Positions 1,173 through 11,176 of a DNA stretch of 11,782 nucleotides are shown here, piece by piece. The notes below the pieces were generated by a model. That model saw only the letters and a program-made list of their open reading frames with translations. It ran no database searches and was not told the origin of the DNA. The position numbers and the translations under genes are program-made. Source of the stretch: Chthonomonadales bacterium (GTDB lineage: Bacteria; Armatimonadota; Chthonomonadetes; Chthonomonadales; Chthonomonadaceae); contig JBBQPO010000197.1 in NCBI GenBank assembly GCA_038217285.1, forward strand, positions 1-11,782, in the 5' to 3' direction. Each line of letters begins with the position of its first letter. Position 1 is the first letter of the stretch.

Positions 1173-1279
1173 TTCAACGAGTCAGCGGTATTTTACCCGC
1201 AGAAGCAGGCAGTACGACAGATTTACAGGCAATTTCCTTCCGGTGAGACAGAATTGCGCGGTTTTGCGGTTCCGTGCCC

Positions 1280-1309
1280 TTGACACATACGAAAGTAGTG
1301 GAGTATAGT
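1280..1309 (+). promoter_or_regulatory. sigma70/sigmaA promoter of lexA
   Basis: TTGACA (1280-1285), 18 bp spacer, TATAGT (1304-1309), ending 48 nt upstream of the lexA ATG. Confidence 0.8.
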
Positions 1310-1357
1310 AGACGAGAGTGCGTGAACTATTATACGTACAGGGGAGGGATCGGAACT

Positions 1358-1996
1358 ATGACCAGAGGGCTAACCGACAAGCAGGAAAAAATCCTGGCTT
1401 TTGTTCTCGACTATGTCAATGACAAGGGCTATCCGCCGAGTATCCGCGAAATCGGCAATCACTTCGAAATATCCAGCCTGCGAGGCGTCACGGTGCACCT
1501 GGATGCACTGGAGCGCAAGGGCTATATCAAGCGTGCCAATACGGCCCGCGCTATCACTGTTATCGGCAAGACCGGCTCGACTGCGCCCAACCGCAACGTT
1601 ACGCTCGTGCCATTGATCGGCACCATCGCGGCCGGTGTACCGATCACCGCGACCCAGAACATCGAGGGCCATATCCCCGTGCCGCAGGAGATGGTCGGCA
1701 CGATGAACAATGTCTTCGCCCTGCAAGTCAAAGGCGACTCGATGATCGGCGCGCACATCATGCCGCGTGACCTTGTCATCATCAAAGAGCAGCGCACGGC
1801 CGACAACGGCGATCTCGTCGCCTTCCTGCTCGGGGACGAAGCCACCGTCAAACATATTCAGTTCACCGGGGAAGGCGTCCGTCTGCTGGCTTCCAATCCC
1901 GCCTACGAACCGATCGAAGTGCGCCGCGAAGACAGCCATATCATCGGCAAAGTCATCGGCCTCATCCGCAACTACGACGGCCCCCACTCGTTCTAA
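1358..1996 (+). CDS. lexA: LexA SOS repressor (212 aa)
   Basis: N-terminal winged HTH (LTDKQEKIL...GYPPSIREIG...HLDALERKGYI), Ala-Gly cleavage site (IAAGVP), catalytic Ser (GDSM) and Lys (EATVK). Start moved from 1274 to ATG 1358 because GGGAGGG precedes it and the promoter lies inside the longer ORF. Confidence 0.97.
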   Translation: MTRGLTDKQEKILAFVLDYVNDKGYPPSIREIGNHFEISSLRGVTVHLDALERKGYIKRANTARAITVIGKTGSTAPNRNVTLVPLIGTIAAGVPITATQNIEGHIPVPQEMVGTMNNVFALQVKGDSMIGAHIMPRDLVIIKEQRTADNGDLVAFLLGDEATVKHIQFTGEGVRLLASNPAYEPIEVRREDSHIIGKVIGLIRNYDGPHSF

Positions 1997-5194: not shown

Positions 5195-6508
5195 TCAGGT
5201 GGAGGCGCCGTCACGCCGTGACATCAGGACGAGCGGCAGAAACGGCACGACGACTAGCACGAGGATCGTCGTTCCGGCGTTCACCCAGACGAGGTCGCGG
5301 AACGTCAGATGAAAACGACTGTAGAGCGTCGAGCCGATCCAGTCGGACATGGCGTTGGTGAAGTTCCAGACGCTCATCATGACCGCGTAACCGATCGCCT
5401 CGCTTCCCTTGGGAGTGCCTCGCGCCGCCAGATCGTAGACCGGCAGCATAGCCAGCGTCCCCGTAATCCCACTGATCGCCGTGATAACGATGGCCGATGT
5501 CTGATTATGGTAGTAGAGATAGGTGAGCGTTCCGAGCGCGTGTACGATGATACTACCGGTCAGGAGTATGCGGAGGTTCATTTTTCGACACGCGGTAAAG
5601 TAGACGAAGGTTGTCAGCAGGCCGCTTGCCGCCGCCACCAGCACCAGCATGCCGACGAGTCGCTTGTCAAAATGAAGTACGTCGGTCTGATGGAACAGCA
5701 GAGGGGTTCCAAAGCCGGGGGAGGCCGCGATAAGACAGATCATTAAGGCGGCGCTCAAGAGCGTGGTGCTGCGCAACAAGATCTTAAACTGCCTTAACGC
5801 CTCGACCAGGACCGACCGATCCAGGCGGGCGGTCGGCGGTTCCGGTAGACCGAAATAGTAGAGGGGGACCAGGATAAGATGCAGGAAGGACGCAATGCCC
5901 ATGGTGACCAGGAAGTAGACCGGCCCCATCGCCGCTATGAACCGCGCGCTGGAGAGATAACCTCCAATGGGGCCGCCCAGCAGACTGCCCAGACGAAAAG
6001 CTCCGATGCGCTGCGCTGTCAGCCGACCGGCCGCGTTGAACCGCTGTCCGACCTCCACCATGACTCCGCCGAGAGAAGTGCTCGTAAAAACGATGGTGAC
6101 GTACAGAATGGCGTAGGTTACAAGCAGAATATTGTAGGTGCGCGGTACGAGGGCCAGCAAAATCCAGAACACGCCGGAGCCCAGCAAGCTGAGGATGAGG
6201 TACCATCGCCGCCGCGTCCCGAACAGCGGCACACTATCGACCAGCACGCCGGCCAGAGGTTTGATGTAGTTGGTGAACGCCCCAAGCGCGAAGAATGCCG
6301 ACACTGCCGCCGCAGTACAGTGCAGGTTGTCTTTCAGCAGGAACTTTAGCGGCAGGTCGGCGACCGCGATTCCCAGATTCGTGCCGAGCCAGCCTAAGCC
6401 CATCAACAGCGCGAGGGTCGACAGGCCGCGCGCATCGACACCACTGGCGGTAACGACCGCCTCGCCCGTTTGCGGTTCCACACTTAGCACTTCCGGCGCT
6501 TCCAGCAC
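5195..6508 (-). CDS. MFS transporter, BT1/folate-biopterin transporter-like
   Basis: About 12 hydrophobic segments; IKPLAGVLVDSVPLFGTRRRWYL resembles the BT1-family motif; GTG start with AAAGGAG SD. Confidence 0.85.
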   Translation of the reverse strand: MLEAPEVLSVEPQTGEAVVTASGVDARGLSTLALLMGLGWLGTNLGIAVADLPLKFLLKDNLHCTAAAVSAFFALGAFTNYIKPLAGVLVDSVPLFGTRRRWYLILSLLGSGVFWILLALVPRTYNILLVTYAILYVTIVFTSTSLGGVMVEVGQRFNAAGRLTAQRIGAFRLGSLLGGPIGGYLSSARFIAAMGPVYFLVTMGIASFLHLILVPLYYFGLPEPPTARLDRSVLVEALRQFKILLRSTTLLSAALMICLIAASPGFGTPLLFHQTDVLHFDKRLVGMLVLVAAASGLLTTFVYFTACRKMNLRILLTGSIIVHALGTLTYLYYHNQTSAIVITAISGITGTLAMLPVYDLAARGTPKGSEAIGYAVMMSVWNFTNAMSDWIGSTLYSRFHLTFRDLVWVNAGTTILVLVVVPFLPLVLMSRRDGAST

Positions 6509-6609: not shown

Positions 6610-9126
6610 TCAGTTCGCGGCGGGCGCTTTGGCGTCGGCGCGGGGTTCGACTCCGAGCAGGTTGCGCACGAAGAAGTCCTGTAATCGCCGTTTCCCGTAA
6701 GGCGTCCCGGCGACTCCGTGGCCGCTGCCCGGAGAGACCAGCAGGTCGAAATCCTTATCGGCCTTGATCAGCGCATTGACGACCTGCATCGTCGTCGCGG
6801 GATCGACATTGTTGTCCATTTCGCCAACCATGAGAAGCAGTTTGCTGTGCAGTTTCGGCGCGAGAGTCACGTTCGACTGTTCGGCGTAGTGCGGGCCGAC
6901 GGGCCAGCCCATCCACTGTTCGTTCCACCATATTTTGTCCATCCGGTTGTCGTGGCACCCGCAGTCGGCCACACCCGCCCGGTAGAAGTCGCCATGCTGC
7001 AGCAGCCCACCGAGCGCATTTTGCCCTCCGGCCGACGTGCCGTAGATGCCGACACGGGTCAGGTCGAAGGCAGGATATTTCGCCGCCGCCGCCTGAATCC
7101 AGAGGATACGATCCGGGAATCCGGCGTCGCCCAGGTTCTTCCAACAGACGTCATGAAAGGCTTTCGAGCGGTTGTTAGTCCCCATGCCGTCGATCTGCAC
7201 GACGATGAAACCGAGCTCGGCCATCTGCTGAAGGCCCGAGGCCGGAGAGAACGCTTTCGGAACGAACGAGCCCTGCGGTCCGGCATAGATGTTTTCGATA
7301 ACAGGGTACTTACGCCGCGGATTGAAGTTCGAGGGGCGCACGATCACCCCATAGATGTCCGTCTTACCGTCCCGGCCTTTGGCCACAAATCGCTCGGGAA
7401 ATCGCCAGCCTGTCGCGGTAAGGGCCGTGGCGTCGGCGCGCTCCAGATCCAGTACCTTCTTGCCATCTTCGGCACGACGAAGTTCCGTCACGGGCGGCAG
7501 ATCGACCCGCGAGCAGGTGTCTATAAAATATCTGCCGTCCGGCGAGGGCGTAATCGCATGCGTCCCATCTCCTTCCGTCAGGACGGTCAGGCCGGTACCG
7601 TCGAAATTCACGCGGCAGAAGTGGATATAGTACGGATCCTGCCGCATTCGGATGCCGCCTGCTCGAAACCAGACCTGTCGCTTTACCTCATCGACGCGAT
7701 CCACACCCCGAACCACCCATTCGCCCTTCGTGATCTGATTCTTCACCCTGCCCGTGGCCGTATCGTAGAGGTAGAGGTGATTCCAGCCGTCGCGCTCCGA
7801 CATCCAGATCGCTTCGTGCGTCGCATTCAGGGAGTGCAGGGAGACTTTGTTCGTCCAGTCGATAAACGTTTTTGCCTGCTCATCGATGATCGCCGTCGTG
7901 TCGCCCGTCACCGCATCGACAGCGATCAACCGCATCACCTGATGCCCGCGCTGATTGTAGAGAAACGTGAAACGTCGCCCATCCGGCTGCCATTCGACCC
8001 GAGAAATCTCCCATGGATTGGGAAACAGATCGTCCTTGATGGGAATGTCACGCTTTGTGGCGGCATCGAACAGATGCGGTCGTTGATGCGCGATCCGGTC
8101 GCCCGGCTTGAGGTAGTCGATCGTGTGCAGCTTCGGCTGAACCTGGTCCGCCGGAGACGACTCGACGAGATAGACCTTGTGCTCCTGCGCCGGAACGGTT
8201 TTGAACAGGACGAACCTGGAGCCATCCGGCGACCAGATCGGTTCTCCTTCATAGGCATCGGCAGCGGCGCCATCGTGCGTGATCTGGGTCTCCTCATTAC
8301 TGCTGGTATCCTGTAGAACGACATTGTGGTCCTTCACGAACGCGCGCCATTTCTGGTTTGGAGCGAGAGCGGGATCGCGCTCCCGAGCGCGGTGGGGGGC
8401 GGCGACAAGACCGTCCACGACCGCCAAAAGCGGCATGTCCGTTCCGACAAAGGCTACGAGCGGCTTGCCCGTCTTTTCGGTCAGCAGCCAGAGATGCCCC
8501 ACATAGGTATGCACTTCCCGAGTCTCCCCGGAGCGCAACACGCCGTAATCGTGTCGCTGGCCCTCGCTGTCTATCCAGAGCAGCGCGACATCGGCAGGGG
8601 TTTTGTTTCGAAAGCTAAGGTGCGTCTCTTCCGCCCCGCCCGTCGAACCGTGCGGCATGGCGGCAGGCGACAGAGGCGTGGCATGGCCCAGAGCCTCCGT
8701 CGCCGGTTTGACTTCGTAGGTGTTCAGGTCGCAGGCGAAGCTCTTTTCCTGCACCTGTAGCAACAACACAGGCCTGTCGGTGACGAACATGATCCGCTCG
8801 ATGGGCAGATGCTCGGCAGTGACCTCCCGGCCCAGTGCCTTCGTGAGCCCGGTGGCGATGCGGGCATGGTCGAACGCCGGCATTTTCGTCGCGTGGGCCG
8901 GGTCGACCAGCACGAACTCTCGCTGCCCGTCCGCGAGGTCGTTGCGATACCAGAACCGATCACCGCCGGAGATCCAGTTCGGTTTGACAGCGGAGCGGAA
9001 CACTTTGCCCGCGACGAACTGCCCCAGGCTGTTCGCTCGTTCGTAGTCACTGCGAGCGCCTTGCGCGTGAGCGGGAGAAAGAAGCACCATAAAAAGCATC
9101 ACCATGAACGGACATAAGCATCGCAT
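6610..9126 (-). CDS. Secreted S9B (dipeptidyl peptidase IV-like) serine peptidase with an inserted VHL-beta-like domain
   Basis: Signal peptide MRCLCPFMVMLFMVLLSPAHA|Q after a GAAGG SD (start 9126 rather than 9210); propeller motifs WSPDG, SERDGWNHLY, ITKGEWVV; YAGP; nucleophile GTSAGG; Asp in GEMDNNV; His in GSGHG. Confidence 0.93.
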   Translation of the reverse strand: MRCLCPFMVMLFMVLLSPAHAQGARSDYERANSLGQFVAGKVFRSAVKPNWISGGDRFWYRNDLADGQREFVLVDPAHATKMPAFDHARIATGLTKALGREVTAEHLPIERIMFVTDRPVLLLQVQEKSFACDLNTYEVKPATEALGHATPLSPAAMPHGSTGGAEETHLSFRNKTPADVALLWIDSEGQRHDYGVLRSGETREVHTYVGHLWLLTEKTGKPLVAFVGTDMPLLAVVDGLVAAPHRARERDPALAPNQKWRAFVKDHNVVLQDTSSNEETQITHDGAAADAYEGEPIWSPDGSRFVLFKTVPAQEHKVYLVESSPADQVQPKLHTIDYLKPGDRIAHQRPHLFDAATKRDIPIKDDLFPNPWEISRVEWQPDGRRFTFLYNQRGHQVMRLIAVDAVTGDTTAIIDEQAKTFIDWTNKVSLHSLNATHEAIWMSERDGWNHLYLYDTATGRVKNQITKGEWVVRGVDRVDEVKRQVWFRAGGIRMRQDPYYIHFCRVNFDGTGLTVLTEGDGTHAITPSPDGRYFIDTCSRVDLPPVTELRRAEDGKKVLDLERADATALTATGWRFPERFVAKGRDGKTDIYGVIVRPSNFNPRRKYPVIENIYAGPQGSFVPKAFSPASGLQQMAELGFIVVQIDGMGTNNRSKAFHDVCWKNLGDAGFPDRILWIQAAAAKYPAFDLTRVGIYGTSAGGQNALGGLLQHGDFYRAGVADCGCHDNRMDKIWWNEQWMGWPVGPHYAEQSNVTLAPKLHSKLLLMVGEMDNNVDPATTMQVVNALIKADKDFDLLVSPGSGHGVAGTPYGKRRLQDFFVRNLLGVEPRADAKAPAAN

Positions 9127-9370
9127 TGTCGCACCTTCTGTCGTTGCAGATCTGCAGAGAGGCGAACAGGTCGCGCGGCGGCCCGCTCTGCCACGGTAGT
9201 TTCGGGACAAGGTCGTCGGAAACCTCCGTCAAATGACTCTGTTGCCCCGTAGTAACGGCAGGAATCCGCTTCCGCGAAGTCGAACCGAACCGCAAGCACG
9301 GATCAGAATCGCGGCGTCTCCTCTGGAATGCCGCCCCGCTCGATCCCGTCAAAACTTTAGGAGTTCCGCC

Positions 9371-11176
9371 ATGCGTCTCATCCGCCCCTTCCTGGCAATC
9401 CCGCTGTTTTGCCTGCTCGGCATCTCCCCTGCAATCGCCCAGAACGTCATCATGTATCAAGTGGAAGCGCGCACGGCGGAAAAGTCCTTCCAGGTGCGGA
9501 TAGATATTCCACATGTCCGGGAGTTGACGGTACGGGTGCAGATCCCTGTCTGGTCGCCTGGGGCCTATATGTCCGGCAACTACGCGGCGAATATCGCCAA
9601 TCTCTCCGCCGAAGATGGGCTTCATAAGCCGCTCAAGATCTACCACCCGGACCAGAACACCTGGGAGATCGCCGCCAACGGTGCGGACCTTCTCCATGTT
9701 CAATATTCGGTGAACAAGGTCGATGCGGTGGAGACGAACGGCGTACCGCAGCGCGCCCATATCAACGGCCCCCGCACCTACCTCTATGTGGTGGGACGCA
9801 AGAGCGAGCCAGTCGCCCTGTCGCTGGCGACTCCTGTGGGAGCGAAAGTGTGGAAGATCGCGACCAGCCTGGACCCGACCGAGAGCGCCGAGCGGACATC
9901 GGAGCCAGCGCTGCATGGGTTCACCGCACCCTCTTACGACGTGCTCGCCGATGCACCGGTGGAGATGGGAGACTTTGTGGAGAAGCAGTTCGAGGCCGGC
10001 GGCAAACCGCACAGTGTGGTGATTTACGGTGACGCCACTGGCCTAGACCGGGCGAAGCTGGTGAGCTACTGTAAACGGGTCGCAGAGACCGAGACCGCGT
10101 TCTTCGGCGACGCGCCCTATCACCGGTATATCTTTCAGTTCCGCACGAACGCCAGCCGAAGCGGGGGAGGAGGAGGACTGGAGCACCTGGGATCGACCGA
10201 GATCAGCATGAGCAGTCTGGTCGATGATCGGGTCCGCTCCGTCATCGCCCACGAATACTTCCACCTCTGGAACGTCAAGCGAATCCGGCCGTTCGTCCTC
10301 GGCCCCTTCGACTACGTCGATCCGCCGCGTACAGCCAACCTCTGGTGGTCCGAGGGGGTCACCAGCTACTACGGCGATCTGCTCTCGCGGCGTGGCGGCC
10401 TCAACACCGATGCGGAGTATCTCAAACATCTCTCCGACACGATCACCGCGCTTCAGAACAACCCTGCGCGGCTCAAGGTTTCCGCCGATCAGTCCAGCCT
10501 GCATGTCTTCGACGCCAACAACAGCCAGGGCTTCGGGGGCCTCTCCTACTACACCAAAGGAGAGATGATCGGGCTCTGCCTGGATCTGAAGATCCGCGAA
10601 GTCACCAGAGGCGTCCACAGTCTGGACGATGTGATCCGCGCGCTCTACGTGCAGTGCGGCCGGGGCGACGGCCCCGGCTTCGGAGAGGACGACATCAAAA
10701 AGACCGTCAACCGCATCAGCGGCCAGGATCTCTCCGACTTCTACGACCTGGCCGCGCGCAGTACAGAGGAGCTTCCCTTCGCGGAGTGCCTCCGAGTCGT
10801 CGGCCTGAACCTCGCCCGCGCCGAGACCCCCGTCGCCATCCCGGATTCCGGCATGACACTCCAGCCGGACCGCCAGTTCCAGTCGCTGAGCGTAGGGGAG
10901 ATCAACGCCGAGGGCGCCGCCGCAAAGGCCGGGCTCAAGGCTGGTGACAGAATCGCCTCTGTCAGCGGGCAGACCGAAATGCGCGGCATGGCCCAACTCC
11001 TGCGCACCACTGCGCCGGGCAAGCCGCTGACCATCACCGTCGGTCGTGGCGGCGCGCGCATCGACATTGCCTTCACGATGGGGTCCGCCAACCGCTACCC
11101 GTGGCAGATCACGCCCGATCACTCCGTAACCCTGGACAAACTGCGCCTGCGCCGCCAGTGGCTTACCGGGAAATAA
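9371..11176 (+). CDS. Secreted M61 (glycyl aminopeptidase family) metallopeptidase with C-terminal PDZ domain
   Basis: AGGAG SD before ATG 9371; signal peptide ending PAIA|Q; PVWSPGAY, GGLEH, HEYFHLWNVKRIRP, WWSEGVTSYY, SYYTKG; PDZ motif AAKAGLKAGDRIASV. Confidence 0.95.
   Translation: MRLIRPFLAIPLFCLLGISPAIAQNVIMYQVEARTAEKSFQVRIDIPHVRELTVRVQIPVWSPGAYMSGNYAANIANLSAEDGLHKPLKIYHPDQNTWEIAANGADLLHVQYSVNKVDAVETNGVPQRAHINGPRTYLYVVGRKSEPVALSLATPVGAKVWKIATSLDPTESAERTSEPALHGFTAPSYDVLADAPVEMGDFVEKQFEAGGKPHSVVIYGDATGLDRAKLVSYCKRVAETETAFFGDAPYHRYIFQFRTNASRSGGGGGLEHLGSTEISMSSLVDDRVRSVIAHEYFHLWNVKRIRPFVLGPFDYVDPPRTANLWWSEGVTSYYGDLLSRRGGLNTDAEYLKHLSDTITALQNNPARLKVSADQSSLHVFDANNSQGFGGLSYYTKGEMIGLCLDLKIREVTRGVHSLDDVIRALYVQCGRGDGPGFGEDDIKKTVNRISGQDLSDFYDLAARSTEELPFAECLRVVGLNLARAETPVAIPDSGMTLQPDRQFQSLSVGEINAEGAAAKAGLKAGDRIASVSGQTEMRGMAQLLRTTAPGKPLTITVGRGGARIDIAFTMGSANRYPWQITPDHSVTLDKLRLRRQWLTGK

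Follow-up and report, generated by a model that had tools for sequence, protein, structure and literature searches.

The locus and its peptidase gene

The stretch of DNA considered here, referred to as the window, comprises the 11,782 nucleotides of contig JBBQPO010000197.1 from a Chthonomonadales bacterium (Armatimonadota; assembly GCA_038217285.1). It encodes, on its reverse strand, a serine peptidase of the S9B type whose beta-propeller is interrupted by a VHL beta domain, a relative of the beta domain of the human von Hippel-Lindau protein (pVHL). To our knowledge, the sole established role of VHL beta domains is intracellular, and consists in the reading of hydroxyproline (Hyp) on HIF in animals. 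The analysis described here has found that a large and widespread family of bacterial peptidases carries the domain as an optional module with its pocket residues intact, and that in several lineages the peptidase gene is linked to genes of Hyp catabolism and peptide uptake.

The reading frame of the peptidase (6610-9210, reverse strand) has 866 codons, and all residue numbers given below refer to it. The probable start codon is the ATG at 9124-9126 (M29), which has a GAAGG-like site upstream of it, and the database form of the protein has 838 residues, in agreement with this start. The features of the gene and of its neighbours are collected in Table 1. The hydrophobic start followed by an AQG motif, on which the predicted signal peptide is based, was seen in the alignments across the peptidase family. 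The assignment of propeller blades was made by alignment to the structure 5yp1 and by means of the blade map included in PMC5807507, the strands being also visible in a weak full-length model.

Table 1. Features of the peptidase gene and of neighbouring genes in the window (residues of the 866-residue frame)
Feature	Positions	Strand	Basis or remark
S9B-type serine peptidase gene with VHL insert, 838 residues	6610..9126	-	Open reading frame, stop codon included
Predicted Sec signal peptide (~20 residues; core hydrophobic, last residues Ala-His-Ala, followed by Gln-Gly)	9067..9126	-	Translation, by eye
N-terminal part of beta-propeller preceding the insert (probably blades 1-2)	8677..9057	-	Conserved with and without VHL
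VHL beta domain insert (strands about 8416-8628)	8413..8646	-	Pfam, pVHL alignment, model and Foldseek
Stretch with the five Hyp-pocket equivalents	8488..8577	-	pVHL alignment
Arg/Pro-rich linker after the insert	8353..8412	-	Poorly conserved, model confidence (pLDDT) <50; alignments, models
Rest of propeller, Pfam DPPIV_N, residues 275-573	7492..8388	-	E 1.1e-46
Alpha/beta-hydrolase catalytic domain, Peptidase_S9, residues 660-849	6664..7233	-	E 1.5e-43
Catalytic Ser726	7033-7035	-	Alignment to 5yp1
Catalytic Asp799	6814-6816	-	Alignment to 5yp1
Catalytic His831	6718-6720	-	Alignment to 5yp1
MFS transporter, BT1 family	5195..6508	-	Directly downstream of the peptidase gene
M61 glycyl aminopeptidase with PDZ domain	9233..11176	+	Divergent from the peptidase gene
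LexA repressor gene	1274-1996	+	Unrelated to the VHL finding
Ribosomal protein L10 gene	2634-3191	-	Unrelated to the VHL finding

The VHL beta domain

The insert translates to 78 residues (189-266), and is recognised by the Pfam VHL profile (PF01847, cut-off 21) both in the context of the whole protein (residues 194-245, 41.5 bits, E 1.4e-10) and when searched alone (46.7 bits, E 3.3e-12). Among the sequences of the PDB, phmmer retrieved 24 of pVHL with E-values from 1e-7 to 1.3e-6, in an ungapped alignment of 54 residues, the sole other match being a Rep protein at E 0.94. Moreover, a model of the domain, built from an alignment of 45 family sequences, reached a mean predicted local distance difference test score (pLDDT) of 83.1, with seven strands and no helix. 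Foldseek comparison of this model with the PDB yielded 75 matches at E <= 0.001, and among the matches listed all were pVHL chains, with query-normalised template modelling (TM) scores of 0.54-0.71. Residues 189-266 are a true VHL beta domain.

The opposite explanation, namely a chance resemblance or an annotation artefact with no real VHL domain behind it, was ruled out by the Pfam scores, which are twice the cut-off, by the pVHL alignment at E 1e-7, where an unrelated PDB sequence did no better than E 0.94, and by the Foldseek result; furthermore, the domain is kept across 45 species. Its probability is regarded as practically negligible.

With the beta domain of human pVHL (PF01847; PDB 1lm8, 4ajy and 6i7q) the bacterial domain shares the seven-stranded beta sandwich and the alignment already described, in which W88, Y98, H115 and W117 of pVHL recur unchanged and H110 and Y112 are likewise retained. 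There are also clear differences. The serine at position 111 of pVHL is a threonine in the bacterial domain. The insert is followed by a linker and then by the propeller, and neither an alpha domain nor a BC box for Elongin C was detected, as no other VHL-related family occurs among the ten Pfam hits and the model is free of helices; the part which makes pVHL a component of a ubiquitin ligase is therefore missing. Finally, pVHL is free-standing, whereas the bacterial domain sits inside the propeller of a peptidase, behind a predicted signal peptide for export. An initial annotation, made from the letters of the DNA, had placed a VHL-beta-like domain at 8413..8646, aligned it without gaps to pVHL, described it as interrupting the propeller region and noted the lack of the Elongin-binding alpha domain. 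The profile searches and the model agree with this description, and the interruption of the propeller is also evident from those family members without insert, which carry a short linker at the same loop.

The hydroxyproline pocket

The residues which in pVHL line the Hyp pocket are W88, Y98, S111, H115 and W117, in a numbering that presumes that chain 1lm8_V starts at residue 54. Counted along this chain, their equivalents in the window are W212 (codon 8575-8577), Y222 (8545-8547), T235 (8506-8508), H239 (8494-8496) and W241 (8488-8490), with H234 and Y236 standing opposite H110 and Y112. The five positions are thus kept, with Ser111 replaced by Thr, and the codon coordinates given for them in the initial annotation proved correct.

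The conservation of these positions was followed in 46 copies of the domain from the peptidase family. The equivalents of H115 and W117 are His and Trp in all 46 copies, and that of S111 is Thr in 45 and Ser in one. The W88 equivalent is Trp in 45 copies (one gap), and the Y98 equivalent is Tyr in 44 (one Phe, one gap). Outside the pocket list, Asn is found at the N78 equivalent and Gly at the G114 equivalent in 45 copies each, His at the H110 equivalent in 37, and either Phe (28) or Tyr (18) at the Y112 equivalent. In a MAFFT alignment of 45 domains, which are 20-46% identical to the query, conservation reaches 90% or more in only seven columns, namely the five Hyp-pocket positions plus the N78 and G114 equivalents. 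Within the peptidase family, the pocket residues thus form the best conserved columns of the domain.

When the comparison is extended to the best 150 representatives of a large protein search (described below) together with the query, 222 of 364 domain copies show the complete W/[YF]/[ST]/H/W set; 24 of these 222 belong to the protein P0021, which Pfam assigns to fibronectin type III, and are probably false. The pocket is therefore better kept in the peptidase family (45-46 of 46 copies per position) than in VHL-like domains at large. Because the pocket residues are conserved, binding of Hyp by the bacterial domain appears plausible.

Insertion site, modularity and spread

A scan of species-representative genomes revealed, among at least 600 matching stretches, at least 593 encoding relatives of the peptidase, of which the best 80 loci were analysed. 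They come from metagenome-assembled genomes of Planctomycetota, Verrucomicrobiota, Armatimonadota, Acidobacteriota, Gemmatimonadota, Aminicenantes, Poribacteria and Lentisphaerota. The VHL domain was detected in 44 (phmmer) or 45 (hidden Markov model) of these 80 relatives, the remaining 35 having a short Arg/Gly/Pro-rich linker in the same loop. The insertion point is preceded by a conserved region with a W-C-D-L...Y strand and followed by the SPDGKW strand, with which the next blade begins, the latter strand aligning with residue ~156 of the dipeptidyl aminopeptidase PmDAP IV and residue ~121 of the Porphyromonas gingivalis enzyme. For PmDAP IV, the structural description in PMC5807507 places the loop linking blades 1 and 2 at residues 90-109 and blade 4's double-Glu helix at 208-209. 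The alignment of the SPDGKW strand, taken with these blade positions, indicates that the VHL insert is most likely located between propeller blades 2 and 3.

A FastTree phylogeny of 81 sequences (insert columns excluded, no bootstraps) requires at least 11 changes of state between presence and absence of the domain, at least four of them forced by well-supported branches; in 500 label shuffles, a number of changes as low as the observed one was never reached. The query groups with two other Armatimonadota sequences (L004 and L014). The VHL domain is an optional module, repeatedly lost or gained, and its presence and absence among relatives imply that the enzyme works without it, as expected of an accessory binding module.

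The position of the insert invites another explanation, according to which the domain would serve structure or regulation, covering a propeller opening like a lid or gate or providing a surface for oligomerisation, and would itself bind no ligand. Its insertion in an inter-blade loop is in accordance with this, as is the finding that a different inter-blade loop of PmDAP IV, that between blades 1 and 2, folds over the substrate (PMC5807507); the conserved aromatic residues, moreover, also belong to the core of the fold. An essential gate would not be dispensable, however, and 35 of the 80 relatives manage with a short linker after repeated loss or gain of the domain, while packing alone leaves the invariant polar residues of the pocket unexplained. 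Such a role is considered unlikely.

The spread of the family is also relevant to the possibility that the domain mimics host pVHL and acts, like an effector, by binding hydroxylated host proteins such as HIF. The pocket is indeed the one that binds Hyp564 of HIF. The carriers, however, are free-living lineages of soil, water and sediment (Planctomycetota, Verrucomicrobiota, Armatimonadota), and the domain lies within a peptidase predicted to be exported by Sec and has neither alpha domain nor BC box, so that host mimicry is judged highly improbable.

Five of the 80 records (L018, L047, L062, L066 and L068) are labelled as Chitinophaga pinensis, Bifidobacteriaceae, Heliomicrobium or Eubacteriales, and their peptidases sit in the tree among those of Planctomycetota, Verrucomicrobiota and Acidobacteriota, which may reflect either mislabelling or gene transfer. 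In the genome of the window itself, a genome-wide search gave a single VHL match, and three further S9B paralogues (31-37% identity) are present, none of them with a VHL match.

The same architecture is found in protein collections. A word-indexed search returned 14 clusters of 776-842 residues, all with precomputed VHL, DPPIV_N and S9 labels and one of them named 'dap4 [Chthonomonadales bacterium]'. When 1.84 billion cluster representatives were scanned for the domain with HMMER, 1066 proteins were obtained at E <= 0.001, 148 of them at E <= 1e-10. Among the best 150, 55 also match the flanks of the peptidase, many of these being N-terminal fragments. When 36 chosen, mostly longer representatives were scanned with Pfam, 15 had DPPIV_N, and the others were tandem VHL arrays or fusions with a Ricin-type lectin, lipase, SAM-TIR, DM9-ankyrin or TPR. 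One peptidase relative with DPPIV_N (P0032, 686 residues) has two VHL copies, and P0017-P0031 are proteins of ~2000 residues with 5-12 tandem VHL-like domains.

As regards earlier knowledge, a retron survey of 2020 (PMC7736814) describes prokaryotic VHL beta domains as being of unknown function, and PMC9002001 treats, in silico, a VHL-domain protein from Litorilituus that is unrelated to the present one. Literature searches found no paper describing the combination of VHL with an S9B peptidase, and 'VHL' does not occur in a 2025 review of microbial S9B peptidases. The architecture is already catalogued through the precomputed Pfam labels, and what would be new is the function, just as the initial annotation had anticipated.

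The host enzyme

The enzyme carries both domains of the family, DPPIV_N and Peptidase_S9, and matches relatives in the PDB down to E 4.3e-49. Its Ser726, Asp799 and His831 align with the triad of PmDAP IV (Ser613, Asp689 and His721; PMC5807507) and are invariant in an alignment of 14 sequences.

The best solved relative, matching residues 322-836 at the E-value just given, is a P. gingivalis S9B peptidase (PDB 2d5l, 2eep, 2z3w and 2dcm), named 'dipeptidyl aminopeptidase IV, putative' by the depositors and presumably the prolyl tripeptidyl peptidase PTP-A. Both enzymes share the layout of propeller plus hydrolase and a motif around RDGWNHLYLYD. The P. gingivalis enzyme differs in being devoid of a VHL insert, in its 11-residue Glu-bearing loop before the WSP strand and in having Tyr after the catalytic Ser, where the enzyme of the window has Ala. 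The bacterial dipeptidyl aminopeptidases IV (PmDAP IV, 5yp1; Stenotrophomonas maltophilia, 2ecf) likewise share the S9B fold and the triad, and the S. maltophilia enzyme reportedly acts on a 4-Hyp substrate, to judge from the title of a 2008 report by Nakajima; the double-Glu motif of these enzymes is absent from that of the window, and the S1 residues are changed relative to PmDAP IV.

These changes are considerable. The S1 residues which PMC5807507 names for PmDAP IV are Asn614, Val639, Trp642, Tyr645, Tyr649 and Val692. In the window's enzyme they become Ala, Cys, Asn, Asp and Trp, respectively, with Val692 alone being kept. The residue after the catalytic Ser, within the motif G-T-S-A-G-G, is thus Ala, as against Asn in PmDAP IV and Tyr in the other aligned enzymes. 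As for the double-Glu anchor of the substrate N-terminus, the positions preceding the WSP strand vary across the 81 family sequences, that of the window included, and in a profile of 22 insert-less members a gap of 11 residues stands at the Glu-bearing loop of the P. gingivalis enzyme. Judged by these residues, the host is not a classical DPP IV, failing both in the double-Glu motif and in S1, and since the anchor loop is deleted and S1 altered, cleavage after proline is not established for this peptidase. The initial annotation had spoken of a secreted DPP IV-like peptidase. The predicted signal peptide, the S9B domains and the triad agree with that name, and its classical DPP IV part has to be given up.

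In one clade of relatives (L035, L041, L044, L046, L047, L050 and L052) an insertion of ~22 residues with an acidic D-E-E motif precedes the WSPDS strand, at the site of the double-Glu helix of DPP IV. This clade holds three of the five loci linked to Hyp catabolism described in the next section; the window's protein has no such insertion.

Genomic links to hydroxyproline catabolism and peptide transport

The genome of the window possesses a Hyp cluster (contig C121, L003:222-3364) with a 4-hydroxyproline epimerase scoring 468.6 bits against an NCBIfam cut-off of 442, flanked by DapA-like and D-amino-acid dehydrogenase-like genes. When its three proteins were searched against the 80 loci (tblastn), an epimerase homologue was found within 6 kb of the peptidase gene in five of them, four with the VHL domain (L046, L047, L074 and L076) and one without (L052). 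The best NCBIfam matches of these five are 4-hydroxyproline epimerases (384-420 bits, just missing the cut-offs of 442 and 450), with proline racemase at ~195 bits. As a single-copy gene would fall within a given 12-kb interval of a 6-Mb genome in ~0.2% of cases, five of 80 represents a strong enrichment.

The arrangement varies from locus to locus. In L074 one strand carries DAO, the epimerase, a 288-residue protein and a DHDPS-like gene, and the other an aldehyde dehydrogenase, the peptidase, overlapping by 4 nt, and a subtilase. In L047, DAO and epimerase are divergent from an AraC regulator, the peptidase, DUF885 and a POT transporter, and in L046 the epimerase is divergent from the peptidase and an overlapping POT transporter. 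The order in L076 is peptidase, then the epimerase homologue (seen by tblastn) and DAO, and in the VHL-less L052 it is epimerase, DUF885, DAO and then peptidase.

In addition, genes for POT di/tripeptide transporters flank the peptidase in six of the 80 loci and DUF885 genes in five, in all cases on the same strand and beside the VHL form; the DUF885 protein may be a partner peptidase. A recurring same-strand cassette, made up of the VHL-bearing peptidase, DUF885 and a POT transporter, was observed in L005, L008, L035, L041 and L047.

The 288-residue protein of L074 (2476-3342, reverse strand) has a weak, sub-threshold similarity to HExxH-type metallopeptidases (Peptidase_M90, 19.6 bits). It adjoins the peptidase gene in ten of the 80 loci, mostly VHL-less (L074, L006, L009, L010, L027, L036, L041, L055, L067 and L078), and in L006 and L009 it shares one stop-free frame with the peptidase, so that the two may be fused.

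With regard to the source of Hyp, the only PF13640 match in the genome of the window is borderline (27.3 bits, cut-off 27) and lies in a cytidylyltransferase-like fusion, this being the one prolyl 4-hydroxylase family searched. The lack of a clear PF13640 hydroxylase fits a source of Hyp outside the cell.

Proposed role and alternatives

The role proposed for the protein, to which we give about an even chance, is that of an exported S9B peptidase with an optional capture module, which would bind Hyp-containing peptides through its pVHL-type pocket. According to this proposal, the serine peptidase would be exported to the periplasm or secreted, and its VHL domain would bind Hyp peptides of collagen-like proteins or of Hyp-rich glycoproteins from plants and algae, concentrating them locally at the entrance of the propeller. 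The captured substrates would then be cut to short peptides, which could be imported and their Hyp burned via the epimerase pathway. In this way, soil and water bacteria might feed on collagen-like or plant cell-wall proteins. That the pocket binds Hyp is suggested by the conservation of its residues, and that the enzyme feeds the Hyp pathway by the gene linkage seen in some lineages.

The closest functional parallels are carbohydrate-binding modules and the collagen-binding domains of clostridial collagenases, which are also non-catalytic, optional means of targeting an enzyme to a polymer and are variably present among homologues. They have other folds, and the VHL module differs from them in being inserted in a loop instead of appended to an end, and in its putative ligand.

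Several observations weigh against the capture of Hyp peptides and must be set beside those which favour it. The core of pVHL holds an aromatic tetrahedron (PMC3688787), and as the conserved aromatic residues belong to the fold core as well, their conservation may in part have structural reasons. The full-length model (14-sequence alignment) is poor, with a pLDDT of 55.9, a predicted TM score (pTM) of 0.38 and values below 50 in the catalytic domain, too low for a judgement on access to the pocket or on its orientation towards the active site. The remodelling of S1 makes even a specificity of the peptidase for Pro or Hyp uncertain. In plants, Hyp is mostly O-glycosylated, a modification that would block a pVHL-type pocket. 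The Hyp cluster of the window's own genome lies on another contig and is not adjacent to the peptidase gene, and the five linked loci are not all independent, three of them falling in one clade and one of them (L052) being VHL-less. Strong Pro_racemase matches, surveyed in the first 40 of the 80 genomes, showed no enrichment with the domain (13 of 30 VHL-form against 6 of 10 VHL-less genomes). Taken together, L052, this co-occurrence and the distance of the own cluster mean that the linkage is evidence about the peptidase family as a whole, and about the domain only in an indirect way. Lastly, searches of the 80 related loci at E 1e-10 gave no homologue of the window's M61, BT1/MFS and MatE genes or of two small open reading frames; with no neighbour recurring, the local context says little.

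The same lack of a genome-wide association with Hyp catabolism lends some weight to a related explanation, in which the domain would still be an exosite for capture, with a different ligand: unmodified Pro-rich or extended peptides, or some other hydroxylated or modified residue, so that no Hyp would be read. VHL-like domains do occur in many unrelated architectures, from tandem arrays to fusions with Ricin-type lectin, lipase, TIR-SAM and TPR, the full pocket is present in just 222 of 364 copies, and the function of the prokaryotic domains is stated to be unknown in the retron survey cited above (PMC7736814). Nevertheless, the hydrogen-bonding residues of the pocket, namely His115 and the Thr equivalent to S111, are kept in 46 of 46 copies of the peptidase family (counting 45 Thr and one Ser), and proximity to genes of Hyp catabolism is seen repeatedly, in distinct regions of the tree. 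An exosite for another ligand is thus rather unlikely, without being far-fetched.

If the capture of Hyp peptides is true, it would provide the first function for bacterial VHL domains and a way for abundant bacteria of soils and waters to mine collagen and the Hyp-rich wall proteins of plants and algae. It would also offer biotechnology a set of small, stable and naturally diverse Hyp-binding domains, as well as enzymes possibly useful for the processing of collagen peptides. A more far-reaching version can be put forward tentatively, namely that the PVC (Planctomycetes-Verrucomicrobia-Chlamydiae) group and its neighbours possess a dedicated extracytoplasmic system for Hyp peptides, with VHL as the Hyp reader and an S1 pocket made more polar in order to accept Hyp. 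Were this so, the fold used by animals for oxygen sensing through HIF would be in wide use in bacteria for nutrient capture, and perhaps first arose there.

Other genes of the window

The BT1/MFS transporter gene downstream of the peptidase may be co-transcribed with it, and a part of this transporter in peptide uptake is only a guess. On the other side, the presence of a Gly-removing M61 enzyme beside a possible collagen-peptide peptidase is suggestive; the pairing was not found in the 80 related loci. The window also encodes a MatE pump, and the LexA and ribosomal protein L10 genes complete the features listed in Table 1.

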